Below, piece after piece: positions 2,293-24,472 of a stretch of 27,867 bases of DNA. The translations under genes and the position numbers were made by a program. The DNA is from a virus (taxonomy: Duplodnaviria > Heunggongvirae > Uroviricota > Caudoviricetes): the IMG/VR virus record IMGVR_UViG_2526164662_000053. One strand, 5' to 3'. Numbering within the stretch: position 1 is the first letter of the stretch; each line of letters begins with the position of its first letter. The notes below the pieces were generated by a model, which saw nothing but the letters and a program-made list of their open reading frames with translations, was not told where the DNA came from and did not search any database.

Positions 2293-3875
2293 GTGGTGTT
2301 GTCTCCTCTTCCGGCCTGCGACTCTCCGCTATCTGCTGCTCATACGCCTGCGCTATCCACACCGGACGTGAGAGTCCGGCTTTTTGTCGCTCAGCAGATT
2401 CCCTGACCTGCTGGCGGAAAATGTCCTGATAATCCTCGCCCATCAGCGCCAGCTCTTTCTCATACGTGCTCAGTCCGGCCTCAATGCGCATCACTGATTC
2501 CTGGACTTCCTTGAGCCCGTCAATGGCCATTCTTCCGGCTCCAATCCACTCTGCCCGTGACCAGGCTGATCGCGCCTGATAAAAATCAAAACGTGCCCGT
2601 GGCGGACGAATAATCCCCCGAAGAAGTGCCTCTTCCAGCCAGCAGGAAAACATCTGCGTGGCCAGCCGGGCCGCAATAAATTTTCGTCGTCCCATAAAAT
2701 AGCGCCACGACTCATTGGCGGAGGCGCGGGCACTTGAGTAACTGACCTTGAGTAATCACGGGACGAACTGTTCGTAGGAAACGCCAAGACCGGCGGCGAT
2801 ATACCGCAGCAACGCCTGTTCAAGCGCAGAAAATCCATTGTCTGAATCCTGCGCAGTCTGTAGTTTCAGATCATCACCAGGGAAAAGGTGCGGAATTTTG
2901 ACACCGCCCAGTGTCACGTTATTCGTGTCATACCAGCTGGAGAACTTCTCCAGAATATTAATAAGCGGATTATCTTTCTGCTCCTGTGGCGCGCCGGCGA
3001 TATATTCAAAGGCCTTTTCGGTATCAAGTTCACTTTCAATCGTCGCTGCATACATGGCTTTCACAATGGCCGACTGAAGCTGTGTTGCCTGCAGGGAATC
3101 CAGCATCTTCAGCCGTTCCATGACGCTGTAAAACTGATTAGCCCCACGGGTCTGCCCGTCCTCCACCGGCTCGAAAATATGCAGCATGGCCGGACGCCCG
3201 GTGGGTAGTTCACGCGGTATCCGTTCCCATCGTCCACTACCAGAGACGGAAAATCATCCTCACAGATATGGTACGCAACGGCACGGCCATATCGATCGAC
3301 CTCCACCCCGGCCCGCAGAAAACGGTTCCCTATACCGTGTCCTGGCGTGTCCACCCGTTTCGGACTCACGGCTTTAAAACGCGTACGAAACAGTTGCGTG
3401 CTCTCCGTATCCCAGACCGGCTGCACAAAGATTTCGCCGTTAAACGCATGAACGCCCACACCTTCACGGATAAATTCCGTAAACGTGCGTTTCCCTTCCA
3501 CGTCGATCTCGCCAGACATCCCTTCGGCGTATTCCGACCAGGCCGCCTCCACCTCATCGACAAAACTTTTTGCTGCAGTCTCCCGCATCCCCAGCCAGCG
3601 CCAGTTCGGACGGTAGCTGATCAGGAACATATGCCCGACAATATGATCCTTATGCAGTGCCACCGCATTTGGCCGCTATCCCGTTATTGCGCACCAGATC
3701 ATCTGCACGGGCATTGCCCAGACGCAACGCGGGCAACAGGGCCGCATCGGCACTCTGCGCCGGTGGCAACCACTCCGCCCATTTGCCCGCCAAATCCTGC
3801 ACCGCCCCCGTTGTAGCTGAGGCTCTCCCGAAGCGGAACACCGTTCACATCAATCAGGACAGGCGTTCGTTTCAT
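2282..3875 (-). pseudogene. B: portal protein (lambda gpB-like), interrupted by several frameshifts and an in-frame TGA
   Basis: ATG at 3875 overlaps the W stop (ATGA); portal similarity is split over ORFs 3650..3841, 3109..3663, 2756..3187 and 2282..2695; frame breaks near 3775-3785, 3668-3670 and 3205-3250; TGA at 2756-2758. Confidence 0.75.
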
Positions 3876-4081: not shown

Positions 4082-5990
4082 TCCTCCGGACAGCTTCGCT
4101 GCCAGTTCTTTCAGGGTTGGCCGGGTCGTCTCTTCTTCCCGGGATTTTGCCAGTACAGCCAGATCAAGCTGCCAGCGTTGCACGGACACACGTAATGCCG
4201 CGTAGGCATACACCAGGCAGTCCAGCGCTTCGTTACGCCGCTTTTTGTTATCCCACAGCAGACGCATCTTTCCTTTTTCCCACTTCTCCACCAGCTCTTC
4301 CGCCACCAGTTGCTGCGCCTCTGTCTGCGAAAAAATCTCCGGATCATCAGGAAAACGGATGGCATACGACGTGGCTTCATCCGCAGGCGAGGGATCGGCT
4401 TTCATACGGGCATAGAGAATTTCTTTTGCGGTGTCCGTTCCCACTTCACACAGATACACGCCCCGCTGATTGCGGGTTTTTGCATGGTGATCACCGGCTT
4501 GCCATAGACAGATGCGCCTTTTACCGGCAGCACCCGGGAAAAAACCGTGTTTTTTTGTATCTCTGATAAACAATTTCACCATCGATCCCCCCGGTGTCCC
4601 AGCAGACACGGGAAATAGTCATTTCGGTGCCATCCGCATGGCGGTATTTTTTGTTGATCGCCGCATCCACACGTAACAGCGTCTCTTCCTCATCAGGACG
4701 CCCCATAATGATGATTTTATCCACCAGAAAGGCTTCCTCTCCCGGAGCCCATCCCCAGACATACATCTCAAAACGGTTTCGCTGCGAGTCAATGCCCGCC
4801 GTCAGATAAACCACCCGGGCAGGCACCGCCGCCGTGTAACGCACCACCTTATCCATCAGTACCTGGTGATCGAGTTTTTCGCCCACGGCCTCTTCCCAGG
4901 TCTCGCCCAGCGTGGTGTTCACAAAGGTTTTCAGGCCGTTGGGATCTTTCAGTGCATCCAGCCAGTCATAGACAATCTGTACCCAGGTGGTGAACGGACT
5001 GTACGCCGTCCAGATATGGAACGTGATGGAGCGCGGCGGCGGAATTTCATCACCCCGGGCGCTGAAAAACGTCAGACCGTCACGGGTCCACATGCCCGTG
5101 TTTTCACAGATCCACCGCCCGTTGCTCTGGTCCAGTTCAGACTGATGGATCACGCAGCCATGATGTTCACAGAGGTAGAAAACACTTTCAGGGCTGTCCT
5201 TCTCCCATTTAAGCCCAAAAGGCGTGGACTCATCGCCAAATTTCAGATACTGCTCCTCCCCACAGTGCGGGCAGGGCACATAAAAACGCATAAAATGCGC
5301 CGACTCGTTAGCGGCTTTTTCGATCTGGCAGGTGCCTTTGATTTTAGGCGTCGAGCCGCGAATGGATTTTGGCCACACCGACCCCTCAATACGCTTATCC
5401 CCCAGCAGGGTTGGCGAGCCCTCTTTTTCGACATCCGGCTCGAACGAGGAAAGTTCGTCATAGCAGACCACGTCCACGGATTTTTCACGGTAGTTTTTGG
5501 CGGCAGCGCCGCCCAGGCACCAGAAACCGACGCCCGATGAAAAGCGTTTCAGCGTGAGAGTATTGTCACGATGTTTACGCCCCAGCCATGGGGAAAGGTC
5601 TTTCAGGCATGGCACGTTCCGAATCGTCGCCTCCACGTGAGACTTCATAAAATCTTCAGCGGCAGAATCCGTGGGCTGAAAAAGCAGACTGTTTCGGGAT
5701 TTATGCTCAATAAAATACCCGACCACCCCCAGCAACATCTTTGTATAGCCAACACGGGCAGATTTAATCAGATTAACAGTGCGGATCTGATCATTCCCCA
5801 TGCTGTTCATGATGGCGATCTGGAATGGCAGCGTTTTCCATTCGCCCTCACCATATGAAGATTCTTTAGGCAGATAATAATTTTGATCAGCCCATTCAAC
5901 TGGCGTCACCGGCAATGCCCTTATCAGGGGCTGTAATGCAGTTGTGACAGCGCTCATCATATTATTCAGTTGTTGCTCTGATATATTCAT
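4082..5990 (-). pseudogene. A: terminase large subunit (lambda gpA-like), frameshifted
   Basis: ATG at 5990 (MNISEQQ…); strong gpA similarity through WDTGGIDGEIVYQRYKK, then three frame changes at runs 4549-4555 (T7), 4532-4537 (CCCGGG) and 4477-4481 (T5); C-terminal similarity resumes and runs into W. Confidence 0.75.
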
Positions 5991-6468
5991 CAAGTAAATC
6001 CGGTAATTTATCCCCTGCCCGCGCACACTGATTTGCCCCCTTAGCAATAAGGGTTTTCAGATGGTCAAGATGGCGCGGTGTTAAATCAGGAAACTGTCGC
6101 TGCATGGATAAAGGGATGGAATCAAGCGTACTGGATAACGCCATTGCCAGCTTACTGAGGGCAAAAATACAGAATCCGGTGTCAATAAGCTTACCTTCGG
6201 TTACCTGATTTTTAAGTTTTTGAGCTACGGCCTGTTCTTCTGTCAGTTCAGCTCTGGCCCGAAGCAGCCTTTCCTCCAGATCGCCCTCGTCATCAGGTAT
6301 TCTCTGATTGTGTTGTCGCCGCTCGCGATCTATCTCCAGTACAGTTTTAACGTCATAAAAAACTTCCCTCCCCCGACGCTCAACAGGAGGAACGCCCCAT
6401 TTATCAAATGCCTGAACAGATATACCGATGGAGGAGGCCATATCACTTTTATTCAATAAAAAGGCCAT
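5962..6468 (-). CDS. nu1: terminase small subunit (lambda Nu1-like)
   Basis: ATG at 6468 preceded by GGAGAGGAG; MAFLLNKSDMASSIGISVQAFDKWG…PLSMQRQFPDL aligns with recalled Nu1; 3' end overlaps terL start. Confidence 0.8.
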   Translation of the reverse strand: MAFLLNKSDMASSIGISVQAFDKWGVPPVERRGREVFYDVKTVLEIDRERRQHNQRIPDDEGDLEERLLRARAELTEEQAVAQKLKNQVTEGKLIDTGFCIFALSKLAMALSSTLDSIPLSMQRQFPDLTPRHLDHLKTLIAKGANQCARAGDKLPDLLDEYIRATTE

Positions 6469-6662
6469 CTCCTCTCCATAAGCCATCGATAAAAAGCGAT
6501 ACAACAACCATGTGTTTTTACAAAACCATTTGATATCATTGACATTTTTCGCATTGACGACATCAAAACACATCGTAAGGTTGTTGTATTTATTTTATTT
6601 TCACCTTACTTATCAATTAGATATACCAAACAATTAAACAACAACTCCCCCTCAAAAAATCT

Positions 6663-6726
6663 CATAAATAGCGAAAACCCGCGAGGTCGCCGCCCCGTAA
6701 CCTGTCGGATCGCCGGAAAGGACCCA
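6663..6726. other. cos site (cosN 12-mer at 6684-6695, adjacent lambda-like end sequences)
   Basis: cataaatagcgaaaacccgcgaggtcgccgccc is the reverse complement of the recalled lambda left end; following cgtaacctgtcggatcgccggaaaggaccc matches the lambda right end with one mismatch; about 190 bp upstream of Nu1. Confidence 0.8.
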
Positions 6727-6902
6727 CGAAAATGATAATAATTATCATCTACATGAGGTTTATCACGACATGTGTGTACGCCATCAAACCACGAGAAATA
6801 ATCAATTATTACGCAGGTATCGTATTAATTGATCTGCATCAAATTAGCGTAAAAGCAACTTCAGATAATACAAATCAGCAACACTGAATACGGGGCAACA
6901 TT

Positions 6903-7127
6903 ATGTCATCAAAGAACAGAACCCGCAGAACAACAACCCGCAACATCCGATTTCCAAACCAGATAATTGAACAAATTAACATCGCTCTTGACCTGAAAGG
7001 TTCAGGTAATTTTTCAGCGTGGGTTATTGAAGCCTGCAGAAGAAGATTAATTAATGAAAAATATTCTCAATTTGTACCCAACAAAGACAAACACGACCAG
7101 AGCACCTGTTCAGACAGGTTTACTTAA
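6903..7127 (+). CDS. small basic protein, YnfO/YlcI-family-like
   Basis: 74 aa ORF; MSSKNRTRRTTTRNIRFPNQIIEQINIALDLKGSGNFSAWVIEACRRRL resembles recalled Qin/DLP12 YnfO/YlcI; family assignment from memory. Confidence 0.55.
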   Translation: MSSKNRTRRTTTRNIRFPNQIIEQINIALDLKGSGNFSAWVIEACRRRLINEKYSQFVPNKDKHDQSTCSDRFT

Positions 7128-7145
7128 ACGACTTATATATGACAC

Positions 7146-7175
7146 AAAAAGCGACCACTAAAGTCGCTTTTTCTT
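7146..7175. terminator. bidirectional intrinsic terminator between convergent genes
   Basis: aaaaa-gcgac-cactaaa-gtcgc-ttttt: GC stem flanked by A-run and T-run. Confidence 0.5.
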
Positions 7176-7208
7176 ATGGTAACAGGCAATAACTCTCTCA
7201 GATATTTT

Positions 7209-7523
7209 TTAGCATTTTTTTGACCGCGCGTTTCCGGACGTATTCTGTTCTCCTGTCCCTTTATATCGTCGGAATACCCGCCGCTCTTCAAATCCCATTC
7301 CCAACTCAGAATGTAGTCTGTTGACCGCTTGTTTTATTTCGGTCAGGTTCACCGGTGAAACCGGAGTCCGGCGCGCCTTACGCAAACACTCTGCTCGTTT
7401 CTGTGCCGCCACTTTTCTTTTCTGGTCATCACTTAGCTGTACCATCACTTTTGCCCATCGTTCAGCTGCTCTCCGGTACAGTCCTTTTTTCTCCAGACAT
7501 TCTGCCACGTGATCATGTAGCAT
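7209..7523 (-). CDS. PerC-family-like transcriptional regulator
   Basis: 104 aa; ATG at 7523 with GGAGG 7 nt upstream; LEKKGLYRRAAERWAKVM resembles the conserved PerC/Pch motif as recalled. Confidence 0.5.
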   Translation of the reverse strand: MLHDHVAECLEKKGLYRRAAERWAKVMVQLSDDQKRKVAAQKRAECLRKARRTPVSPVNLTEIKQAVNRLHSELGMGFEERRVFRRYKGTGEQNTSGNARSKKC

Positions 7524-7988
7524 AAGTGACCTCCGATTATCTACAGACTGCCATCCTGAATTTACCTTCCCTTAATGAAATAACAATAAAAAACAAACCA
7601 CGCAAAAACAATAAAACAACACACAAAAAAAACTAAATAATAAACAAAAATAATCACCTTGTTTTATTATTTTTTGAGGGAGCAATTACTGAACAAAAAA
7701 CGCTGACTATATACTCAAAACCAAACAACTATTCTGCCAATCAGGTATCATGGCAACACACGGAATTACCGTGTTTTTGCCTTCTCTGCCCATACAATAC
7801 GGGCATATACTTCATTCTCTATTGTAATATTTCTATCCATGTGCCCCACTCCATTTACCTGTAAATAATATTCAAAATATTTATCACAGAAATCGTTTTT
7901 GGCCATGAACTGAGCACACTATAAAGTCCGGAACTGACTCTTTGTTAAATTACCTTAACGTTACCAGTAACACCTTCATAACAAAATA

Positions 7989-8456
7989 TCACGGTATACA
8001 CTGGGTACGGATATATTCCTGTGCTCCTTCCAGTTGCTTCTGCATTGCCATCAGCCGTTCTCTGAGGATGAAATAATCCCGTTCAGCGGTGTCTGCCAGT
8101 CGGGGGCCGGTTGCATTATCCACGCCGGAGGTGCCGGTGGCTTCACGCACGGTACCGGAGCAGGTGGCGTTGATCCGCAGGCGCTTACGACCAGCGGCAA
8201 CATCAGCACGCAGAGTTTCATTTTCAGCTCTCGCATCGGCTAATTCCCTCGAGTATCTGGCATCAAGTGCAGCGACATCACGCTGGCGTATCTGCATATC
8301 AGTAATTGTCGCGTTCGCCAGCTCCAGCTCACTGGCTTTTTTATCGCGCTGCTCTTTGTAGATGATGGCGTGATCACGGTAATGATTCAGCCCCAGACTA
8401 AGCGCACCACAGGCCACCAGCAGGACAATGATAACCACGCACAGAACACGGTTCAT
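7989..8456 (-). CDS. Rz: i-spanin (lambda Rz-like)
   Basis: Internal ATG at 8456; MNRVLCVVIIVLLVACG…NHYRDHAIIYKEQRDK…DMQIRQRDVAALD… matches recalled Rz. Confidence 0.85.
   Translation of the reverse strand: MNRVLCVVIIVLLVACGALSLGLNHYRDHAIIYKEQRDKKASELELANATITDMQIRQRDVAALDARYSRELADARAENETLRADVAAGRKRLRINATCSGTVREATGTSGVDNATGPRLADTAERDYFILRERLMAMQKQLEGAQEYIRTQCIP
8051..8236 (-). CDS. Rz1: o-spanin lipoprotein (Rz1-like), embedded in Rz in another frame
   Basis: 61 aa; lipobox LVVSAC followed by proline-rich CVKPPAPPAWIMQPAPDWQTPLNGII as in lambda Rz1. Confidence 0.8.
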   Translation of the reverse strand: MRELKMKLCVLMLPLVVSACGSTPPAPVPCVKPPAPPAWIMQPAPDWQTPLNGIISSSENG

Positions 8457-8791: not shown

Positions 8792-9325
8792 CTATCTGTC
8801 GATGTCCCAGCACGCCAGCGCGCTCTCCTGGTCACGCCGTGAGACCTGACCGTAGCAATTATTTGAACGGATACGGCAGTCTCTGCCACCGTCCTTAATC
8901 CACCAGCGAATCGCCTCACAGGCACCTTTTCGATCGCCTGCATTAATTCGTTTATAAAACGTCGACGGGAAGCACTTACCGGGGCCAATGTTGTACGGAC
9001 AGAATGACGCGATCCCCGCTTTCTGGGGTTCGGTCAGCGGCACCCGGATGTTTTTCTCCACCCATGCCAGCGCCTTGTCACGTTCGATGGCATTAACCCG
9101 GTCGCATTTTTCCTTTGACAGCTTCATGCCAGGAATAACAGGCTTACCATCCACCAGAATGGCACCACGGCAGATGGTCCAGATCCCCGCACCATCACGG
9201 TATGCCGTGGTGTGGTTACCTTCCTTTTCATCCAGAAACTGGTCGAGGATTTCAGGCGCAGAAGCACCTGCACCAATCAGCGCCAGAACGGCAGCCGACA
9301 GGCCGTATTTTATTTTTTCGTGCAT
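8792..9325 (-). CDS. endolysin, T4-lysozyme-like (GH24), with hydrophobic N-terminal segment suggesting SAR type
   Basis: 177 aa; E-x8-D-x5-T arrangement (EKEGNHTTAYRDGAGIWTICRG); N-terminal Ala/Gly-rich stretch YGLSAAVLALIGAGASAP; paired with a pinholin-like holin. Confidence 0.8.
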   Translation of the reverse strand: MHEKIKYGLSAAVLALIGAGASAPEILDQFLDEKEGNHTTAYRDGAGIWTICRGAILVDGKPVIPGMKLSKEKCDRVNAIERDKALAWVEKNIRVPLTEPQKAGIASFCPYNIGPGKCFPSTFYKRINAGDRKGACEAIRWWIKDGGRDCRIRSNNCYGQVSRRDQESALACWDIDR

Positions 9326-9442
9326 GGGGATTTATCGATTTCTAATCCCTTGATATGTTAGGTATATAATCCAACACTCATGGTCGCTCTCATAAACATA
9401 TCCCTTGAGACGCAGCAGATTACAACAAATGAAGCCATATAA

Positions 9443-9757
9443 ATGAACAGTAAAGAAAGTTTGCGCAGAAGATTTTTACAACTAATGACAGAAAACGTTA
9501 AATCAGAGTTACTTCTTCTGATGGCAGATAATAACGAAGCAACAAGCAGCATTCTTGCAGACCCTTACGGTAAGATCTCACATAAAACGCTGGATATTAT
9601 TACCACAACATTAACACCGCTGATGCTTCAACGGCTGAAACATAATATCAACGCATGGGTTAATGAAGAATTAAGTCCTCCCTGCTTATGGGATTCTCGT
9701 TACGCATGTCAGCAAAAAATGCGAATTTTCAACTTACTATCACCAAAGCTCAGGTAG
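9443..9757 (+). CDS. hypothetical protein encoded antisense within the holin-endolysin spacer
   Basis: 104 aa ORF in AT-rich DNA; no clear SD; identity not established. Confidence 0.3.
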   Translation: MNSKESLRRRFLQLMTENVKSELLLLMADNNEATSSILADPYGKISHKTLDIITTTLTPLMLQRLKHNINAWVNEELSPPCLWDSRYACQQKMRIFNLLSPKLR

Positions 9758-10012
9758 CCATAAAATCCTGCCCTTCATGGCATACAGGATTTCAATGGAA
9801 TCACAATGACCAACTCTTGCACAGCTGTATCCCTGACTCCCCGACAACTCAGATTTTCAGTATCTGCTGCTATCTAAAGAGAAAGCGCACAAATGCAAGG
9901 GTCTTTCATCACGTCCTGTTATTGATTGCCTGTGACCTTTTCTTACCTCATGGAACGTTTTTTCAGTTAGAAATATTCATTTTACAACCAGTTCGTATTG
10001 TTTATTCATCGA

Positions 10013-10666: not shown

Positions 10667-12517
10667 TTATGCTGCCGGTGCATTTATCTCCAGCACCAGA
10701 CTTTCTATCTCAACGCCATACGCTGCATTTTTTGTAACATCCGTCAGCGTCAGCGCATTCAGTCCCAGTGTCAGACTGTCTTTTATAACCTGGAATGCCG
10801 GGCCAGCCACTCCATTCAGTTTCGGAGTAACCGTGGCACTGCCGGCGGTGAACACCAGCTCCAGCGTCTGCCAGTCGTTACCGTAATCGCCGAACTCCCC
10901 CAGCTTCGTGTTTCCGGCTTTCCTGTGATGCATCAGATTCACTCTGCCGTCAGTGGTCTGAGTGAAGTACGACATCAGGAACGGATTACCGGTACCCGTC
11001 ATCGCCACACCATCAGGAACGGGAGCATCCGTATACAGATAAATCCCCAGCCCGAACTGATTGTTGGTCAGTGCGCCTGACAGGCGGAACTTACAGGTCA
11101 GTCTGCCGCCCTGTGTCAGCAGGGTAATTGCGTCATCCACCGGATGCGTCAGGGACCAGGTTTTATTGCTCTGCTTGGTGATCTTAAATACACCATCTGA
11201 CAACTGAATTCCGCCATCCTTAATGCTCCAGCCCTGCGCAGCAGCCTCTCCGGCTGCCGGCAGCAGGGAGATTGTGCGAACGGACGTATCTGCAGACGGA
11301 CCCGATGGCGTGTTGCCGCCGGGCGAGGGTTTGATTTCCGGTGCCTTACCACTGATGAAGGCTGAGGTGCGCCCGGCTGCGTTCAGAATAGCGGTTGCCA
11401 GACGATCCGGAATAATGCTCCTGCGCGCCCATGAACTGAAATGTGTCGGGCGGTTTGATGATACCTGGTTTCCATTCGTTCTCGATGCCGCACCGTAATA
11501 TCCTGATGCCGGAATATCCGGATCTTCTGCCGGCGCGTTAGTGGCGGTATTGACGCCGTTACCGTCTGTCATGAAGGGCACAAAATAAACGCCCTCACTC
11601 TCCCTGTTTTTATACCCGCCGTACACGGTGTCGTACTGGGTAGCGTATGTATTTTTCCAGTAATACGTCGTGTCACCACAAATCCACGGCACATTTACAG
11701 CACTGCCACCATGACACTGCGCGTTAAACACAGTGAGGTCAGCACGAAACTGCTTCAGCATGGCTGTAAACAGCGCAGGTTGCTGTGCGTAGGTGGCGGC
11801 GCTCATGTCAAACTCTCCCTGCATCCAGCACACCGCCAGCAACACATTTTTCGGGTTCTTCTGTAATGCAGCTTTAGTGCGCGCAATCAGGTCCTGATAT
11901 AACGGTTTACCCACACCCCAGCGTGCCGAATCCTGGCTGGCCCCCGTGTCCGCACTGAATGTCCCCTCCGCGCCCTGGGTGAATGCCGAACCACCACGAC
12001 AGCATGGTGCCAGCAGGATCCCCGCGTTATTCGGGATATACGGAAGCAGTTTTTTGGCAATATGTAAGCCCTGGCCGACACAGCCGTACTGCCCTTTGCT
12101 CAGGTCTGCCTTCGGATGATTCAGCGTACTCATATCCTGCACATCATGCAGGCAGTGGTCGGCCGGAATAATATCGTTATATCTGCAGGCAGCCCCACCC
12201 GGCGTCACTGTACTGCGGCGCGCCAGCTGTTTAATGCGCGGATCCGGAGCATCGTATGAATCCGGCAGCGGAAGCCCTTCACCGTAAGCCATGGCATTGG
12301 ACTGCCCGGCCAGTACGATGACGTAGTACCAATCCGGCTCAGTTGCACCACTGACCACCACATCACCTTCTGCTGTAATCGCCTGCATCAGAGTATAAGG
12401 GGTTATGGCCACCGGACTACCAAACGGCTGCCAGCCCTCTTTCAGTTTATGTGTCAGCTTTTCCGCAAGATCTGATGGCGACGCCGCCCTGACAACATCA
12501 TAGTGTTTAAATGCCAT
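10667..12517 (-). CDS. prophage sialate O-acetylesterase (NanS-p-like; SGNH/SASA domain)
   Basis: 616 aa from ATG at 12517; N-terminal MAFKHYDVVRAASPSDLAEKL…, esterase block VIVLAGQSNAMAYG; position between tRNAs and lysis genes as in Stx-type lambdoid phages. Confidence 0.8.
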   Translation of the reverse strand: MAFKHYDVVRAASPSDLAEKLTHKLKEGWQPFGSPVAITPYTLMQAITAEGDVVVSGATEPDWYYVIVLAGQSNAMAYGEGLPLPDSYDAPDPRIKQLARRSTVTPGGAACRYNDIIPADHCLHDVQDMSTLNHPKADLSKGQYGCVGQGLHIAKKLLPYIPNNAGILLAPCCRGGSAFTQGAEGTFSADTGASQDSARWGVGKPLYQDLIARTKAALQKNPKNVLLAVCWMQGEFDMSAATYAQQPALFTAMLKQFRADLTVFNAQCHGGSAVNVPWICGDTTYYWKNTYATQYDTVYGGYKNRESEGVYFVPFMTDGNGVNTATNAPAEDPDIPASGYYGAASRTNGNQVSSNRPTHFSSWARRSIIPDRLATAILNAAGRTSAFISGKAPEIKPSPGGNTPSGPSADTSVRTISLLPAAGEAAAQGWSIKDGGIQLSDGVFKITKQSNKTWSLTHPVDDAITLLTQGGRLTCKFRLSGALTNNQFGLGIYLYTDAPVPDGVAMTGTGNPFLMSYFTQTTDGRVNLMHHRKAGNTKLGEFGDYGNDWQTLELVFTAGSATVTPKLNGVAGPAFQVIKDSLTLGLNALTLTDVTKNAAYGVEIESLVLEINAPAA

Positions 12518-12776
12518 GGTTCTTTCCACCATCTGAAAAATAATTCTTTAAAATACCTGACATGTAATACAGAAAAAACACAAAACCATACCTTAAATAA
12601 AAACCTGATTATCAAGCAGATATGCATGGATAAACTACAAGACGAGATATAAACCACCCTGTATTTAAATAAACAATAAACAACATCAGAAAAATAATTC
12701 TGCTCTATGGTTTAATTCAAAAATATCATTTATACTTTTCAGAACATCACCAGCAAGGCATAAACAAGGAAAGTAA

Positions 12777-13112
12777 ATGAAGTGGATTGTGATTGATACA
12801 GTTATCCAGCCATCATGCGGAATATCTTTTTCAGTCATATGGAGTAAAATAAAATTAATAATCTGGTATCAATCGGATGCTTTCTTACCTCCTGAAAGTA
12901 TATTTACACTGACTCACACAGGTATCATGCTCAATAACAAAGTGCTACCTGTAACCATTTACAACATAGTACCATTCAATAAAACATTCTGGAATTTAAT
13001 CAAAAACAGCCAGGAATGCCCTACAAATACAGATAACGTATTGAATGAATGCTTTAATAACCGTTGCACTCTGCAAATATGTCCTTATGGGCTAAAACAA
13101 CAAAATCCATAA
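12777..13112 (+). CDS. hypothetical protein in AT-rich cargo region
   Basis: 111 aa ORF in strongly AT-rich DNA; no recognisable motif. Confidence 0.25.
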
Positions 13113-13559
13113 GGAGTTTACTCACATCTGACAAAATCAATATAAACAGCCCCTCCGGAGAGGGGCTGGAGAGTGGCGCTATGTGCCATTGCATGGTGCC
13201 GGGTGCCTCCCGGTGAATTCAGTACCAGCACCTGAATCCGCGATTATCCCATATACCTACTCGCTGATTGCCCCTCCGCACAGGGGGATTCACCATGCCA
13301 GTTTCTTTTAACAAACTCCCCGCAAACCAGACAACAGTCAACCGCCTGAATTGTGAAGTATTTAAAAATTTCTCCCGCTAACTGATACCCGGCTAACAGT
13401 CTGGCGTTTTCTTTTTCAGCAACGGGAAAGCAACAACCACCACACCCGCCACCAGCACACCGTCAGCCAGCACTGACATTATCCGGCTGCTGCAATGCCA
13501 TTCACAAAAACAGTAAGCAATCACTTTTTACCGTAACAGGTGATAATCCAGATATGTAT

Positions 13560-14023: not shown

Positions 14024-14100
14024 TGGCGCGCTGTACTGGATTCGAACCAGTGACCGATTGCTTAGAAGGCAATTGCTCTGTCCGGCTGAGCTAACAACGC
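14024..14100 (-). tRNA. tRNA-Arg (anticodon UCU)
   Basis: Reverse complement folds as cloverleaf: 7-bp acceptor stem GCGTTGT/ACAGCGC, anticodon loop CTTCTAA, T-arm GGTTCGAATCC, 3' CCA. Confidence 0.9.
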
Positions 14101-14201
14101 TGAATACCGATAATGGACCGCCATCGGGGACCCGCCCCCCGCACCAACAACCCTGTTATCGTGTCGTCTGCTCTTCCTGATAAGCTAATGGCGGTTTGTG
14201 A

Positions 14202-14277
14202 TGGTGGCCCTTGCTGGATTTGAACCAGCGACCTGGCGATTATGAGTCGCTCGCTCTCACCACTGAGCTAAAGGGCC
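14202..14277 (-). tRNA. tRNA with CAU anticodon, ileX/ileZ-like (tRNA-Ile2; reads as Met by anticodon)
   Basis: Perfect 7-bp acceptor stem GGCCCTT/AAGGGCC, anticodon loop CTCATAA, T-arm GGTTCAAATCC, CCA end; close to recalled E. coli ileX. Confidence 0.9.
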
Positions 14278-17109: not shown

Positions 17110-18449
17110 CATAAGCGCTAACTTAAGGGTTGAACCATCTGAAGAATGCGACGCCTCGGTGCCTCGTTAAGACGATGCCTCGCGTTCTTCAATTGCGTTT
17201 TGTAGGCTGTCAGGGATACTGTCCCACGAATGGCCACCTGTAAGCTCCAGATGACCATTTTTGTTATTCTCCACAACGAGTTAGTTCTTCTTTTCGGATC
17301 CGGCACTTCTGGGGGGGAAATCCAGCGATGGCTGGATTATGTCGTCAATTAAAAATGCGGCGAGTAGATTAGCAAATATCCACGCTTTCGCGAGTTCAGG
17401 TTCCTTTGCACGCAAAGCATCCAGGTGCAGCAAACTTTTGAGCCGCTTAAAAGCCAGTTCAATTTGCCATCGCAGACGGTAACAATCAGCCACTTGCTCT
17501 GCTGAATATTCATCTTCCGGTAATGATGTTAGCAATAGCACATGGCCCGCTGCTTCCAGCGTTTCCGCCTGAACTACTCGTCCTTTTCGACGATTCTCGC
17601 TGAGCAGTCGGGTTTTACTGATTAATGCTTTTTCGGGAGGAAGTGATACGGCAATGAGACGTGCCGGAAAGGGAGCTCCGGTCTTTTTTATTACCTGAAT
17701 TGCCTATCATTACAGTGGTTTCACCGTTCTTACCGCAATCCAGCCCGCGCAGAAAACCCATCATGTCAAAGCGCATTCCTTCTGCAGTTAACCAGCGCAA
17801 TCCTCGCCAGTGAACCCGGACGATATAATCAGCTTCTCCAAAAGCAAGTGAGCGGATACATTCGGGACGCGAACCGAATCCCCGGTCAGCAATGCGTATC
17901 TCGTCTGCCGTTTGCGCAAATCGGTCCAGCCGTTCAGCGTCTCTGCTGTCGGTTAGCTCAAAATCAGTGAACTGACAGGTATGAGGATCATATCCCATAT
18001 GTAGTCGCCATTCAGCGCTGCCGCCCCCGGGCGCACTGATTGCTGTTCCATCGACAAGACGCAATCTCTTTCCGCTTGTACAACCCGTAACTGCGGCGCG
18101 TACAGCAAGTGTTTGTGCGGCAAGTATGCCAAACCAGTCGGCGGCATTCCGCAGCCGCTTCAGGAGAGCCACGTCAGATAATGTTGCAACGTCATGGAGC
18201 TGAGCCCATGCAGTGACTTCACGTAATGACATCCCCCCGGGGCCGTAAGCCAGCCCCAGACGTAGCAGAGTTGCAGCATCACGAATTTCGCGGCGGCGGG
18301 TTAGAGCCCCGGCATTACGTGCCGAAGTATCCAGTTCTTCGGGCTTACCAATATGGGCCAGAATTGCTGACCAGTTATCGTGAGAGTAATTCATCGGCAC
18401 GTTAAATCATATCAGGCGTAATACCACAACCCTTAAGTTAGCGCTTATG
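17110..18449 (-). mobile_element. IS186 copy 1 (IS4 family)
   Basis: Perfect 23-bp terminal inverted repeats CATAAGCGCTAACTTAAGGGTTG; transposase recognised as IS186 InsL; 1340 bp, flanked by GGGATTCTCCC and GGGATTGCTCCCC. Confidence 0.9.
17281..18400 (-). pseudogene. insL: IS186 transposase, split by one frameshift
   Basis: ORFs 17615..18400 and 17281..17541 together cover the transposase; copy 1 reads ccggtctttttta where copy 2 reads ccggctttttta. Confidence 0.8.
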
Positions 18450-18471
18450 GGGATTGCTCCCCGCACAACGG

Positions 18472-18624
18472 CTACTTCTTCGGTTCGTAAGCGAGAACAG
18501 CCTTAAACTCAATATTACGTTCCTTTACGGTGAACTCACACAGCGAGTCTCCGACCAGAAGCGTAAATCCCAGTACCGTCAAACACAGCACTATTACTGC
18601 CACAAGGGCATATTTCGTCAGCAT
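18472..18624 (-). CDS. hokE: Hok/Gef-family type I toxin, HokE-like
   Basis: 50 aa [50 protein letters not shown], matching recalled HokE; IS186 end lies 22 bp past the stop. Confidence 0.8.
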
Positions 18625-18769
18625 GTTTATATTGCCTCCATGCGAAGAAGGGACTACCATCCGAGTTGTTGAGGCTCGGAGTGGCAGCCCCAGGATTGAT
18701 AGAAATATCTCCTGGGGCTTCATCTTTCCAGACCTCAGAGTTAACCTGAAACCGGAAAGCTTCAGGCAC
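18536..18769 (-). CDS. candidate mok-like overlapping reading frame for hokE
   Basis: 77-codon ORF in a different frame that starts upstream of hok and stops inside it, as in hok/mok/sok loci; no sequence recognition. Confidence 0.35.
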
Positions 18770-18963
18770 CCGCCGTTATCTTACCCTTCCTCAACAAAAT
18801 ATCTGTTTATTTATACAGTGAATCCTGTTTCGGACTTCTGTCGGCAAAACTCATCATTGCTCTTAAAACGAAATCGCCCGCAGCCATCACTGACCGCGGG
18901 CGAAAGTGTAAAGCAGGTGCCTTACCATCCTGACCTGACAACCGGATATGCGGGGATTGCTCC

Positions 18964-20301
18964 CATAAGCGCTAACTTAAGGGTTGAACCATCTGAAGAA
19001 TGCGACGCCTCGGTGCCTCGTTAAGACGATGCCTCGCGTTCTTCAATTGCGTTTTGTAGGCTGTCAGGGATACTGTCCCACGAATGGCCACCTGTAAGCT
19101 CCAGATGACCATTTTTGTTATTCTCCACAACGAGTTAGTTCTTCTTTTCGGATCCGGCACTTCTGGGGGGGAAATCCAGCGATGGCTGGATTATGTCGTC
19201 AATTAAAAATGCGGCGAGTAGATTAGCAAATATCCACGCTTTCGCGAGTTCAGGTTCCTTTGCACGCAAAGCATCCAGGTGCAGCAAACTTTTGAGCCGC
19301 TTAAAAGCCAGTTCAATTTGCCATCGCAGACGGTAACAATCAGCCACTTGCTCTGCTGAATATTCATCTTCCGGTAATGATGTTAGCAATAGCACATGGC
19401 CCGCTGCTTCCAGCGTTTCCGCCTGAACTACTCGTCCTTTTCGACGATTCTCGCTGAGCAGTCGGGTTTTACTGATTAATGCTTTTTCGGGAGGAAGTGA
19501 TACGGCAATGAGACGTGCCGGAAAGGGAGCTCCGGCTTTTTTATTACCTGAATTGCCTATCATTACAGTGGTTTCACCGTTCTTACCGCAATCCAGCCCG
19601 CGCAGAAAACCCATCATGTCAAAGCGCATTCCTTCTGCAGTTAACCAGCGCAATCCTCGCCAGTGAACCCGGACGATATAATCAGCTTCTCCAAAAGCAA
19701 GTGAGCGGATACATTCGGGACGCGAACCGAATCCCCGGTCAGCAATGCGTATCCCGTCTGCCGTTTGCGCAAATCGGTCCAGCCGTTCAGCGTCTCTGCT
19801 GTCGGTTAGCTCAAAATCAGTGAACTGACAGGTATGAGGATCATATCCCATATGTAGTCGCCATTCAGCGCTGCCGCCCCCGGGCGCACTGATTGCTGTT
19901 CCATCGACAAGACGCAATCTCTTTCCGCTTGTACAACCCGTAACTGCGGCGCGTACAGCAAGTGTTTGTGCGGCAAGTATGCCAAACCAGTCGGCGGCAT
20001 TCCGCAGCCGCTTCAGGAGAGCCACGTCAGATAATGTTGCAACGTCATGGAGCTGAGCCCATGCAGTGACTTCACGTAATGACATCCCCCGGGGCCGTAA
20101 GCCAGCCCCAGACGTAGCAGAGTTGCAGCATCACGAATTTCGCGGCGGCGGGTTAGAGCCCCGGCATTACGTGCCGAAGTATCCAGTTCTTCGGGCTTAC
20201 CAATATGGGCCAGAATTGCTGACCAGTTATCGTGAGAGTAATTCATCGGCACGTTAAATCATATCAGGCGTAATACCACAACCCTTAAGTTAGCGCTTAT
20301 G
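18964..20301 (-). mobile_element. IS186 copy 2 (IS4 family)
   Basis: Same 23-bp inverted repeats; 1338 bp; flanked by GGGGATTGCTCC and GGGATTCTCCCCC; same orientation as copy 1. Confidence 0.9.
19135..20252 (-). pseudogene. insL: IS186 transposase, split by one frameshift near the N-terminus
   Basis: ORFs 20013..20252 and 19135..20085; C5 run at 20086-20090 where copy 1 has C6; plus one substitution (ADGIRIA versus ADEIRIA). Confidence 0.8.
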
Positions 20302-20480: not shown

Positions 20481-21147
20481 AGCCTGCTTCTCCTTGCCTT
20501 TCGGCACGTAAGAGGCTAACCTAGATTTGCCGTTCATAGATTGAGCCTCAGATTAATGTTAAGCGTCTTGCAGGACGCGTAATGTTAACTGGGGCTTTTC
20601 TCTATCTGCCTTTGGTGTTCATGCCTGAGACAGATAGCCTCAAGCACCCGCAGCCATTCTACTTAACTCCCGTTACCTCGCCAATATGAAATCAGTCAGA
20701 AAGGCGATCCATAAGAACAACAGCAAGGCAATAAATTGCCATTACAGCAGCAATAGCCAGCGCACATTTGAGAACCAGCACCACAACCTCCTGTATTGGA
20801 CGTACACCAGTCCTGATAAATATGAGGCTGTCTCGTCAGTGATTCAATACAACTATTGGGTATAGTTTCTGTGATTTTGTTCTGTAGAAATGGAACATAA
20901 TAACCTGTCACCACCAGCACTTCTTTAAATACGCCAAGTCCGACGCAAGCTAACCTTCTAGCCCGCTTTGAGCGAAGAACGGACTGAGTAATTCAGGCCG
21001 TTAGCGACACTATGACATCATTAGCAACCAACTAGGAGTTGGTAATAGATGAGTTAATTAATTGATTAAAAACCGACGATTTTACTAGATTACGGGAAGA
21101 AGAAAGGCCGCTGGTACGGCCTCCCAGAGACTAGTCTATTGTTATGC

Positions 21148-21345
21148 TTAGAAACGCTTTTCTATCTCTTTTTCTCTTTCGTTTATTGCATCGTCAATGA
21201 TTTTTTTTGCTGAATTAATTTGTGGTGTTTTTTCTGGTAATACATCTTCAAGATCTTTGGCAATTTTCTTTAATTTATCGATTTCTTTAGTTAAATCAGT
21301 TACAGATTTATCCGCTATTGACTTTGTCATTTTTCCATATTCCAT
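21148..21345 (-). CDS. hypothetical small charged coiled-coil-like protein
   Basis: 65 aa ORF in AT-rich DNA; terminator-like hairpin aggccg…cggcct with U-rich tail just downstream on the minus strand. Confidence 0.35.
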   Translation of the reverse strand: MEYGKMTKSIADKSVTDLTKEIDKLKKIAKDLEDVLPEKTPQINSAKKIIDDAINEREKEIEKRF

Positions 21346-21539
21346 TCAATTTATTTATCAATCAGTTACCCGTAAACCTTATCATGGATTCCAATTATCG
21401 ACAGCTGGGATTTTTACTTTCTTGATCTGCCCCAGGCGAATGACATATCCCCATTAACCAATGTCCGCTCCTAGCACTTAGTAGACATTAATAGATTGTA
21501 AGCGTTCCCGTCATGTAGCGGTCACCGATTGGTGATGAA

Positions 21540-21899
21540 TTGAAGCGGATCATTGATGAAAGTCGCAATAACGTGGCCAGCCCATTTATCGTTCACCAGA
21601 TCCCGGAACGGCAGGTTAAACGCAGCAAAGAAGTTTCTCATCCCACTCAAGTTGCACCAGACTATTTGAGTCGGTCGTTTTCAGCTACGCGTGACAAGCT
21701 GGGTTTATATGACAAACGGCCGATGGATGAAAGGCCAACCTTTCACGAAATTCGCGCCTTAGCAGCACATCTTTTTGATCAGCAGGGCATCGATCCACAA
21801 GGACGAATGGCACACAGCGATGCGAAATCAACTAAAATCTACACGCAAAACCATATCGACTGGGTTGTAGTTCCACATGGAGAAATTAAAGCCAGCTAG
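21540..21899 (+). pseudogene. tyrosine integrase, C-terminal fragment only
   Basis: ERPTFHEIRALAAHL…MAHSDAKSTKIYTQ matches the recalled lambda Int C-terminal catalytic region (R, H, Y present); N-terminal two-thirds absent; frame opens with TTG. Confidence 0.7.
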
Positions 21900-22000
21900 C
21901 ACCAAGTAAGGCATAGAATTTTATTAACCAAGGAGCATATGACCAGTAATTAATTCTTACCGGAAAGTTAGCCCTGCTAAAATTAATATTAACAAATAAA

Positions 22001-22035
22001 AAATAGGGGCAAATATTTATATTTGCCCTCGCAAC
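22001..22035. terminator. bidirectional intrinsic terminator between the integrase fragment and the SLATT gene
   Basis: gggcaaata-ttta-tatttgccc stem with A-run upstream and T-rich tail on the minus strand. Confidence 0.5.
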
Positions 22036-22039
22036 ATAT

Positions 22040-22621
22040 TTATCTTCTTTTCAGTTCCTTGGGAAGAAAAGCATCTATTTCTTCTTCAGAAAATGTTAAA
22101 TCTTCTTTGTTTTTTAATGCGTCCTGTGCTTTTTTATAAGCTTCAAATGTTGTACTAGGAGAGCCTGAATACACTGAATGTAAACTCTCGAGTAACGAAT
22201 CCCGCTCTGACTGCAATTGCTCGATTGGTTTTTCACCCATTGCTAAGTCTGTAAGCAATGATAAATACTTTTCTCGGATTAACCAGATCTCATTTGCAGC
22301 CTGCTTATGTTTTTGCGCCAACTCACCAAGGTCATAATCTTTGGTATAAGCGTTAAGAATGAGAAGCAGTGTTGAAACAACAATCCCAACCCCCGTGCCT
22401 ACTTCACCCGCGCCGAAAAAAGTTGCTAGAAAGCCTCCAGTAGTTAAGGCGGAGAGAATTATTTGCCAAAACTTTATAGAAGATAGTCGAGATAGGAGAA
22501 TGTCTGAGCATTTTTCATGCGTCTTATGTGAGTAAACGACCCGACCATAACACTCTCTGATCTGCCCTTCTAAAACCCTTCTAGATTCAGGTGTATCCTT
22601 AGTCTGGAAATGTTGATCCAT
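22040..22621 (-). CDS. SLATT-like two-helix membrane protein (candidate effector)
   Basis: 193 aa from ATG at 22621 (GGGAGA SD); two adjacent hydrophobic helices FWQIILSALTTGGFLATFF and GVGIVVSTLLLILNAY flanked by charged regions; start lies 23 nt inside the upstream gene. Confidence 0.6.
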   Translation of the reverse strand: MDQHFQTKDTPESRRVLEGQIRECYGRVVYSHKTHEKCSDILLSRLSSIKFWQIILSALTTGGFLATFFGAGEVGTGVGIVVSTLLLILNAYTKDYDLGELAQKHKQAANEIWLIREKYLSLLTDLAMGEKPIEQLQSERDSLLESLHSVYSGSPSTTFEAYKKAQDALKNKEDLTFSEEEIDAFLPKELKRR

Positions 22622-23480
22622 AAATCTCCCGCCATTTTTGCTTAGCCGACCATTCGCGTTTTGGGGTCGCCATTTCATGCTCTATAGCTTCGAGTGAAAT
22701 GTTATAGCACCGTTTTGCTTTATATTGGAAAAGCCCTTTACCATAGACATACTGACCACTTCCTGGCGCTTTCCAATACTCCTTACTCGTATCTTGATCA
22801 GCCATCCATTTGAAGAAATCACGACTCATGAAATCGTAGTAAAGATACGACTTATCTCTATGCGCCCAATTTTCAATGAATTGATACGCAAGCGTATCAA
22901 TGAGTAAACCACTTATAGGTACATCCCATTTACGCTTCCAAGCTCTTGCCATTCTACAAAGTTGCACCAAATTGTTATTGGTAATGTTATTTCTTAACCT
23001 CATTGCAGAAATTTCTGGCTTTGGATTTGTAATCCTCCAACGGCCACCACCGTTCGCATCAGGAAATGTGTAACTATCACTAACATTGAGGAAAGCTGGA
23101 ACGACTTCAAATGTAATTCCATCATTGAACGGTACAAGGATCACTTGACCGTCACCTCTAATACTAGTGGTAGCATAGGTTTTTTCAATAGATCTCTTAA
23201 CCGCTTGAAGCAATGCTGACTGCCCATTTCCTAAGTAGCTATTGTATTTTTGATACTCGGAATATGGTAGCTGAAAAATCATATCCAGATCGCTCAAGCC
23301 TTGCGTAGCTGTGTTCCGACCATATGATCCAACGTAGAGACTATGAGAAGTATCAGAACTGCTATCCCAAAAATCCGTATTTAAACGCTTCGTTATATTC
23401 CTATATCTAGTTGAAATTGTTCCACCATCTTTTACAGTAAGATTGGAGCAAAATCCGCAAAACCACTCAGCTAAACCCAT
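22599..23480 (-). CDS. SMODS / CD-NTase-like nucleotidyltransferase (candidate signal synthase)
   Basis: 293 aa from ATG at 23480 (AAGGA SD); motif VGSYGRNTATQGLSDLDMIF (GS…DxD) and downstream acidic motif NDGITFEVVPA. Confidence 0.65.
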   Translation of the reverse strand: MGLAEWFCGFCSNLTVKDGGTISTRYRNITKRLNTDFWDSSSDTSHSLYVGSYGRNTATQGLSDLDMIFQLPYSEYQKYNSYLGNGQSALLQAVKRSIEKTYATTSIRGDGQVILVPFNDGITFEVVPAFLNVSDSYTFPDANGGGRWRITNPKPEISAMRLRNNITNNNLVQLCRMARAWKRKWDVPISGLLIDTLAYQFIENWAHRDKSYLYYDFMSRDFFKWMADQDTSKEYWKAPGSGQYVYGKGLFQYKAKRCYNISLEAIEHEMATPKREWSAKQKWREIYGSTFPD

Positions 23481-23775
23481 GCTCAATTCCTTTTCTAAAA
23501 TCTAATGAAAAATTCAAGGGCGCATGTTCCATGCATCATTGATAACTTTTTTCAGTCAGCTAGAGCAACATAATTGATACTAACTAGCTGTTTCTTCAAG
23601 TGAGTAACCTACTTTAGCATCAAGGTATTATACCTACCAAGCATGGGGAGAAACCACCACTTAAGCCATTGAAGTATATAGAGCAGATTTTGTTGAAAAA
23701 GCACTGTTTGTCTATACATATGAATATGTGCTTTTAACCAGCAATAGCGCGGCTCTCAGCGTTTTACAAGCAGTG

Positions 23776-23822
23776 TCATGGGGTGTCGGGGATCGGAAGT
23801 TCAAATCCTCTCGTGCGACCCA
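23776..23822 (+). other. 3' fragment of a tRNA-Pro-like gene (anticodon loop to 3' end); attachment-site remnant
   Basis: tcatggggtgtcggggatcggaagttcaaatcctctcgtgcgaccca resembles the 3' part of recalled E. coli proM; no matching 5' half upstream. Confidence 0.6.
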
Positions 23823-23834
23823 AAAGATTATATA

Positions 23835-23860
23835 AACCAGCCTGTTATTGCTGGTTTTTT
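23835..23860 (+). terminator. intrinsic terminator after the tRNA-Pro fragment
   Basis: accagc-ctgttatt-gctggt followed by TTTTTT. Confidence 0.5.
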
Positions 23861-24049
23861 ATGCCTACCTTCCTGGTAGGGAAGCTATGGGGAATTACTG
23901 GGGAATCCCCCCCCTTTACCTGCTCCCATTAAACTAACATAGCACGATGTAAGCAACTTCCGCTTCTGGCACAAAGCGGACAACCACGCTAGCTCTACCC
24001 TGTGCCACAAAATGTCAATTTACATCTGAACTAATGCACTTTAATCTCG

Positions 24050-24472
24050 TCACTTCAAAAAATACCGAACATCCCCCTGATAAAACGACAATATCCACTG
24101 CATAACTTCGCTTTTACGACACTCAGTACAAATTATATTATGACGCCTGTCGTAACGACGTATTTCTCCATCAGGTAATGACCAGATAAGGTCCGGATCA
24201 ACCGCAGATGGTTTCTTCAGCTTTGCCCTTGAGAGCTTTTTACGGGCATTTTGCCAGTCCTTACGCGCCTGTTCAGACGGGAATAACCCGTAACCAGAGT
24301 TGTATACATCGCCACTGGCAACCAGCTCTCTGGCCAGAACGCTCATCAGATATCTTGTTGCCCCAGTTTTAGCTTCCAGTTGTCGTAACGTCTCGCGCCC
24401 ACTCTGGCGTACGAGTTCAAGAACCTGCCCTTTAATTTTTTCCCGCTCTTCTTGTGTAAAAACTTTTGCCAC
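24050..24472 (-). CDS. hypothetical protein with HTH-like segment (lambda P position)
   Basis: 140 aa ORF downstream of the O-like gene; function not recognised. Confidence 0.4.
   Translation of the reverse strand: MAKVFTQEEREKIKGQVLELVRQSGRETLRQLEAKTGATRYLMSVLARELVASGDVYNSGYGLFPSEQARKDWQNARKKLSRAKLKKPSAVDPDLIWSLPDGEIRRYDRRHNIICTECRKSEVMQWILSFYQGDVRYFLK

Follow-up and report, generated by a model that had tools for sequence, protein, structure and literature searches.

A fossil attP-integrase module with CBASS cargo in an Escherichia coli prophage, probably brought in by cassette exchange at 24-bp sites and not by integration

The window analyzed here, the 27,867 bp of IMG/VR virus record IMGVR_UViG_2526164662_000053, is a lambdoid prophage of Escherichia coli integrated beside tRNA-Ser and mtfA (a serU prophage), and our subject is an AT-rich island of about 3.0 kb within it (breakpoints 20968|20969 and 23977|23978) in which a CBASS system (antiphage signaling based on cyclic oligonucleotides) lies between the remnant of a tyrosine integrase (Int) and a piece of tRNA-Pro. 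We think it probable, at roughly 80%, that the island is a fossil attP-int module with CBASS cargo, brought in by cassette exchange at two 24-bp sites and not by integration. Specifically, i) the island would descend from a lambdoid phage with the tRNA-Pro gene proL as its integration target, of which it would be the int-[cargo]-attP end; ii) the integrase would have lost its first two thirds, leaving attP dead; iii) lambdoid prophages with other integration sites would have preserved the block in their b region, beyond the tail-fibre genes; iv) block 20969-23977 would then have been exchanged into the slot between hok/sok and the DUF977/replication genes of the serU prophage; and v) that exchange would have taken two crossovers, each falling in the middle 7-8 bp of a near-palindrome of 24 bp and effected perhaps by a site-specific enzyme, perhaps by short-homology recombination.

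The slot is bounded by hok/sok on the left (Rfam sok, 2.4e-25) and a DUF977 gene on the right, and it holds other cargo in UMNK88, EC556, A20, and the phages Tritos and Evi. Among these alternative inserts are a segment of ~230 bp, genes of 810 bp and of 1335 bp (the latter with an FRG domain), and an acetyltransferase with a regulator. Comparison with such relatives had been proposed in an earlier sequence-only reading of this DNA as the way to fix the limits of the island, and it does so: backbone homology ends inside a 24-bp near-palindrome on each side, and the limits first drawn, 20940 and 23860, prove slightly off. Alignment and pattern search place the left breakpoint inside site A (20961-20984; type 1, centre TGAGCGA) and the right breakpoint inside site C (23958-23981; type 2, centre TGGCACA on the plus strand), which is inverted relative to site A; read from the outside inward, the two types differ at two central positions (TGAGCGA for type 1, TGTGCCA for type 2). 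The same pair of sites bounds the slot cargo in UMNK88, EC556, Tritos, and Evi, and in A20 the left copy is degenerate. Both window sites are hybrids: the outer 8 bp of site A are of the hokD/DUF977-slot backbone type and its inner 8 bp of the b-region type, site C likewise combines b-region and slot versions, and the crossovers fall between positions 9 and 16 of site A and between positions 10 and 16 of site C. Base composition agrees with the AT-rich island seen by eye, since the windowed guanine-cytosine (GC) content falls to 0.35-0.44 over ~20750-24250 versus 0.50-0.57 on both sides; the island as a whole has a GC content of 0.402 and the window 0.490, and the integrase remnant by itself is not AT-rich (0.476).

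The tRNA-Pro piece carries most of the argument about what the module once was. Neither ARAGORN nor Rfam calls it, because it is the 3' part of a tRNA only, and it was identified by direct alignment to proL: positions 23776-23822 (plus strand) match positions 31-76 of K-12 proL, tRNA-Pro(GGG), from the anticodon loop to CCA, with two G>A changes and one C missing, as a decayed copy of the 47 3'-terminal nucleotides (nt). A terminator-like hairpin follows (23823-23860, plus strand; -10.8 kcal/mol, z -3.1), found by folding and alignment, which mirrors the terminator of proL itself and is also present in free phages. The 47-nt tRNA-Pro-like fragment with its hairpin and the lack of a matching direct repeat (the window nowhere repeats 12 nt or more of the fragment) were both read correctly from the letters, and proL provides the intact tRNA-Pro match that was to be looked for.

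In attL or attR, the scars of integration, the core separates DNA of the element from DNA of the target, and the flanks of the window fragment do not have this structure. On the plus strand, the P arm (23643-23775) aligns at ~76% identity with the DNA between int and core in the free phages Eeyore, Flotzy, and Phi06_2987S, and the P' arm (23861-23915) contains three GGGAA repeats spaced 11 bp apart (23879, 23890, and 23901; +18, +29, and +40) which the same three phages carry in the same register; we infer that these repeats are candidate arm-type Int binding sites. Local alignment of the P' arm to the free phages scores 17-18, a value reached by 0 of 500 shuffles (6.9 +/- 1.5), whereas both the attR arm of an Enterobacter sp. 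RIT637 prophage and the region downstream of K-12 proL score 6 against it, which is background. Phage arm DNA thus lies on both sides of the core, and the tRNA-Pro piece is, as judged from its sequence, an unrecombined phage attP (POP') and neither attL nor attR.

The integrase remnant (21497-21899, plus strand) was delimited by alignment to the 392-residue Int of the RIT637 prophage. It reads in frame from 21525 to 21899 as residues 269-392 with 88% identity, so that the C-terminal piece reported earlier at 21540-21899 stands and is slightly longer (the last 124 of 392 residues); a frameshifted trace, its frames read by eye, extends back to ~21497. With its N-terminal 268 residues gone, the remnant lacks the complete set of arm-binding, core-binding, and catalytic domains and cannot be functional; Pfam Phage_integrase scores 20.9 bits on it, under the cut-off of 27.1, and RefSeq calls it a pseudogene. 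Intact versions of the module exist elsewhere. Phage genomes searched for distant DNA similarity yielded Eeyore, Flotzy, and Phi06_2987S, each with an intact integrase of ~370-395 residues and with the exact 45 3'-terminal nt of K-12 proL, anticodon loop to CCA, as invariant alignment columns. In these phages ~220 bp homologous to window 23643-23860 adjoins the integrase stop codon, with cargo intervening in Phi06_2987S. The homologous int and attP pieces are 22 bp apart in Eeyore and 1755 bp apart in the window, where SLATT and SMODS genes lie between them; the int-attP gap of Phi06_2987S is 1439 bp and holds genes for an ImmA-like peptidase and a helix-turn-helix (HTH) protein (2430-3860). 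The RIT637 prophage, 77-79% identical to the window in nucleotide sequence, has an xis-like gene, an intact 392-residue int, SLATT, SMODS, and a proL 3' fragment that abuts a host transporter gene and is a genuine attR. The cognate integrase adjoining attP is therefore intact in Eeyore, Flotzy, Phi06_2987S, and RIT637, and only a remnant in the window.

The gap between the int stop codon and attP behaves as a variable cargo slot in its own right, empty in Eeyore and Flotzy, filled by the ImmA-like and HTH genes in Phi06_2987S, and filled by the CBASS in the window and RIT637. Phages of the P22/Sf6 type carry O-antigen conversion genes as cargo between int and attP, and the window resembles such tRNA-integrating phages in having an operon of variable kind between the int stop codon and an attP whose core repeats the 3' part of a tRNA gene, starting at the anticodon loop. 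It differs in that truncation of the integrase and decay of the core have left a dead module, and in that this module lies between hok/sok and the replication genes and no longer at an end of the prophage.

How the dead module came to lie there is suggested by its other copies. Of 5426 complete E. coli genomes, 47 have the cargo region, in every case with at least 99% identity. Eleven genomes share the context of the window over at least 80% of a 4.2-kb query, and in a twelfth, CH4804, it is truncated by an insertion sequence (IS); by elimination, the remaining ~35 share only 20969-23977, with 99.5% identity in the three that were aligned. In AR435, CE0007a, and 82.0311, the block lies just past the tail-fibre assembly gene (tfa), ~2 kb or less from the prophage end, and each of the three prophages occupies a different place in the chromosome. 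These b-region copies follow the free phages in their order, tail fibre - attP - cargo - int, which makes the b region the natural place for an old attP-int module, superseded once the phage had gained a different integration specificity; and since the same 3.0-kb block is found in that tail-fibre-proximal region, where attP-int belongs, we take its arrival in the present slot to be by cassette exchange. Two further features of the b-region contexts may be recorded here. The stretch from the island to the prophage end invariably encodes a conserved 280-residue protein, PHROG 29508 with 1e-43 (4908-5750 in locus L008, 4906-5748 in L007, and 10841-11683 in L002), and the left site of the b-region context also borders other cargo in viral contig L186.

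The 24-bp sites are not peculiar to this prophage. An exact-pattern scan of viral contigs gave at least 120 matches, and the counts of pairs and clusters that follow are among the matches listed. In each of the 62 pairs of adjacent, inward-facing sites, one member is of type 1 and the other of type 2. Site pairs enclose at least 27 cargo clusters in at least 11-13 flank clusters, which belong to both lambdoid and P2-like phages; at least 22 type-1 and at least 24 type-2 sites stand in contexts in which both flanks are unrelated, and information drops to about zero outside the 24 bp. When only the arms were searched for, 142 sites were found, of which 38 have the centre TGTGCCA[GA] and 28 TGAGCGA[AG]; about 8 look random, and the rest belong mostly to a few related centres. 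The cargo is mostly low in GC. Ten cargo ORFs (open reading frames) from ten of the clusters were scanned against Pfam, and six matched a family, namely TIR, RelA/SpoT, AbiEii-like AAA ATPase, trypsin-like peptidase, FRG, and DUF2971. Every one of these is typical of defence genes, so that the cargo tested appears mostly defence-like; no transposase or recombinase family matched any of the ten.

Several observations made in the same scans concern the variety of the sites. Further centre classes occur on the same arms in the arms-only scan (TCGGTCAG 13 times, CCGGCCAG 8 times, and TGGGTCA 6 times), and seven contigs have a pair of sites 1513 bp apart (for example, 2224-2247 and 3737-3760 in L216); these may represent further types of site, belonging to other phage lineages. 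Sites also occur in arrays, in which a type-2 site is followed 4-20 nt on by the type-1 site of the next cassette, as in viral contigs L147 (2672-5044), L151 (10374-10851), L124, L175, and L159.

A half-site rule emerges from these cassettes. Within one backbone, the outer half-site is constant and the inner half-site varies with the cargo (62 cassettes, among the matches listed); window sites A and C follow the rule; and one 984-bp cargo keeps its inner half-sites both in the lambdoid slot and in the Z region of P2. Because the outer half goes with the backbone and the inner half with the cargo, exchange falls within the central 7-8 bp, a pattern that excludes transposition of whole repeats and fits site-specific or short-homology recombination. 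A role of the sites as hairpins, structural RNAs, or terminators was considered and rejected: the stems fold only modestly, and the free stem pair (C-G 23, T-G 16, C-A 13, T-A 3) shows no compensation, which favours a sequence-specific site.

Which kind of recombination is involved is a closer question. The exchange could have been ordinary or relaxed homologous recombination (RecA, or annealing of the Red/RecET type) with the 24-bp sites serving merely as the longest shared microhomology and no dedicated machinery, a contender to which we would give somewhat less than even odds. Phage recombinases do use short and diverged homology, and the crossover intervals are the only stretches, 7-8 nt each, that are identical between the b-region and slot sites. 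This explanation, however, leaves three things without a reason: a sharp-edged 24-bp element in at least 22-24 unrelated contexts per type, a centre as conserved as the arms in the arms-only search, and the pairing of a type-1 with a type-2 end in every one of the 62 cassettes among the matches listed. Conversely, the sites have the features expected of site-specific exchange, that is, inverted arms, a conserved asymmetric centre, and exchange inside that centre. We offer only tentatively the proposal that the 24-bp sites, with their 8-bp inverted arms, 7-8-bp centre, and two types, one at either end of every cassette, are substrates of a dedicated site-specific cassette-exchange system, and we regard it as possible and rather doubtful. 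If true, nature would have an equivalent of recombinase-mediated cassette exchange (RMCE), by which lambdoid and P2-like phages of enterobacteria would swap defence genes between non-homologous positions, and the island would be a product of such swapping.

The direction of the exchange appears to be from the b region to the window slot. The reverse, in which the island is native to the slot and the b-region copies are derived, is in our view unlikely, although the sequence data are symmetric, the two contexts being 99.5% identical with hybrid-compatible sites. Against it, the b-region copies have the gene order of the free phages; their core is the less decayed of the two, the two G>A changes being all that sets it apart from proL; and of the two contexts that of the b region seems the commoner (~35 genomes, of which three were opened) and is found at three chromosomal sites.

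Two other histories fare worse. In one, the cassettes are non-autonomous transposons (mobile insertion cassettes) whose terminal inverted repeats are the 24-bp sites and whose transposase acts in trans; sites do flank the cargo as inverted repeats, and arrays of cassettes do exist, but no target-site duplication is visible beside the sites, the outer half-site stays with the backbone so that the whole repeat does not travel, and 0 of 10 scanned cargo ORFs match a transposase or recombinase family, which makes this very improbable. In the other, proposed by the sequence-only reading and the least credible of all, a second element integrated within the prophage at a target resembling tRNA-Pro and later degenerated, leaving the tRNA half as its attL or attR; the integrase remnant and tRNA fragment are indeed co-oriented and 1.9 kb apart, as in the true attR of RIT637, but the P' arm is phage DNA and not target DNA, a second core is missing from the window and a proL-like motif from the same slot of five related phages and prophages with other cargo, the island ends at 24-bp sites shared with alternative slot cargo and not at att sites, and an identical block lies in the b region. 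What survives of that proposal is its core, that the integrase and tRNA pieces belong to one decayed module with SMODS/SLATT cargo; what does not is site-specific insertion at this position.

Several points weigh against our preferred account of a fossil attP-int module moved by cassette exchange. No E. coli genome in the collection has this CBASS beside an intact integrase at proL, and the intact state is known only from the ~78%-identical Enterobacter relative. The evidence for the direction of transfer consists of synteny with the free phages, an inferred 35 versus 12 genomes, and a less decayed b-region core. Neither the origin of the AT-rich cassette at the left end of the island (cassette A, below) nor that of site B, which adjoins the integrase truncation, is accounted for. 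Finally, the activity, signal, and expression of the CBASS are putative.

The nearest precedent for the sites is found in P2-like phages. In GenBank records of 2002-2004, a "left inverted repeat" and "right inverted repeat" are annotated beside inserts in the Z region, and we have seen this annotation for the P2 Z region only. The inner ends of these repeats (AJ512677, P2-EC31; AJ512681, P2-EC48) are the same 24-bp sites, and the "left inverted repeat" next to the Z-region insert in P2-EC31 has 88% identity with window 23918-23977. The occurrence of the sites in the lambdoid hokD/DUF977 slot and the b region, the two centre types, and the half-site rule do not appear in the papers examined. 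Literature searches for the site sequence, for the hokD hotspot, and for inverted repeats at prophage hotspots gave nothing relevant, and the hotspot papers we examined make no mention of boundary sites.

Gene modules bounded by short recombination sites are familiar from the pdif modules of Acinetobacter plasmids, from integron cassettes, and from engineered RMCE, and the cassettes described here share with them inverted arms, an asymmetric centre, exchange inside the sites, arrays of modules, and non-identical ends. By analogy, non-identical ends would block excision or inversion of a cassette and allow swapping. The candidate sites differ in that no recombinase was found among the ten cargo ORFs scanned, in not being known to resemble XerC/D or attC sequences, and in numbering two per cassette, not one attC. 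An integron cassette has a single attC, with core consensus GTTRRRY, and an adjacent intI; we rejected this identity for our cassettes, which have two sites of different sequence and, in those opened, no integrase beside them. The promoter-early stem-loop (PeSL) cassettes of T4-type phages and the "boundary sequences" at the joints of lambdoid modules are likewise short conserved edges of variable genes for which modular shuffling has been proposed; the sites here differ from them in sequence, belong to temperate phages, and come in two inverted types whose crossover zone is defined.

Prophages with a CBASS operon are of a known kind, as are decayed integration modules, and in itself the island is nothing unusual; the interest lies in the cassette-exchange sites, whose lambdoid extension, two types, and mapped zone of exchange seem to have been little described. 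Two wider points follow. A tRNA half beside an integrase is not always an integration scar and can be the fossil of an unused attP, carried along because defence cargo adjoins it. And while phage defence hotspots are defined in the papers examined by conserved flanking genes, here the points of exchange are mapped to a few bp within a 24-bp site which is common to lambdoid and P2-like phages, making the shuttling of defence genes between unrelated phages a directly testable question.

The CBASS cargo lies between the integrase remnant and attP, where no ORFs but two gave family matches; every other listed ORF has 60 residues or fewer and falls inside those two genes. The first is an intact 293-residue oligonucleotide cyclase of the SMODS/CD-NTase type (22599-23480, minus strand; Pfam SMODS, 2.1e-50; PADLOC Cyclase PDLC00786, 4.6e-144, residues 1-292 of a 293-position model), and the second is an intact 193-residue SLATT_4 two-transmembrane (2TM) effector (22040-22621, minus strand; Pfam SLATT_4, 6e-74; PADLOC 2TM Effector PDLC00696, 1e-84, full length). 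The two genes overlap by 23 nt, and a terminator scan places the intrinsic terminator of the operon, a 9-bp stem and then a T-run, at 22007-22028 (minus strand). These Pfam matches and full-length PADLOC matches confirm the SMODS/SLATT operon named from the translations, and neither Cap2/Cap3, HORMA/TRIP13, nor other ancillary genes were found between integrase remnant and attP in the ORF list and Pfam results; the intact two-gene operon fits CBASS type I, with which it shares the cyclase plus 2TM effector, the full-length PADLOC models, and the missing Cap2/3, HORMA, and TRIP13. As its families predict, the SMODS cyclase would produce a nucleotide signal upon infection, and the signal would activate the SLATT 2TM protein, resulting in membrane damage and abortive infection. 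The operon differs from known type I systems in that the cyclase is only distantly similar to the solved nucleotidyltransferases 6P82 and 6P8U (7e-9), and no solved structure has sequence similarity to the SLATT_4 effector. A promoter scan across the island gave no more hits than in shuffles.

The cyclase also occurs far from enterobacteria, with 59-86% amino acid identity in Planctomycetota, Chloroflexota, Nitrospirota, Bacteroidota, Cyanobacteria, and others (loci L014-L093), usually followed by the effector gene; such conservation is unusually high for a defence gene and suggests recent and wide horizontal spread. Insertion sequences interrupt the same CBASS in two other genomes: ISKpn26 truncates the SLATT gene in CH4804 (locus L009, 5873-7524), and IS1203 splits the region in AUSMDU00014361 (NZ_CP045827).

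At the left end of the island lies cassette A (20985-21462, minus strand), recognized from the ORF listing, GC content (0.35), and folding. It holds a 65-residue ORF (21148-21345, minus strand) followed by a hairpin of -16.4 kcal/mol (z -2.3) which the terminator scan does not call; the small ORF credited earlier with its own terminator therefore exists, as does a hairpin after it, and the call of a terminator does not. The ORF has matches below threshold to Pfam MtrB (0.003) and PADLOC JetC (8e-4) and none in PHROGs. Cassette A ends at site B (21463-21486), a degenerate third copy of the 24-bp site found by pattern search, GTCCGCTCCTAGCACTTAGTAGAC, whose end is 38 nt short of 21525, where the in-frame integrase match starts, and ~10 nt short of the frameshifted trace read by eye.

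Elsewhere in the prophage, other AT-rich stretches at 6250-8000, 9250-10000, and 12250-13250 (GC content down to 0.31-0.34) may be further cargo slots. Two phage-borne tRNA genes lie at 14024-14277, one for tRNA-Arg(TCT) and one with a CAT anticodon which ARAGORN assigns to Met and RefSeq, in the DEC9B prophage, to Ile. That prophage is 99.9% identical to the window, and its RefSeq annotation includes "recombinase, incomplete", "SLATT", and "SMODS". It is missing 17111-20301 (3191 nt), with a 12-nt alignment overlap at the junction resembling a target-site duplication; the segment encodes a transposase-like protein of 316 residues (ORF 19135-20085, minus strand) and probably represents the insertion of one or two IS elements immediately left of hok/sok.

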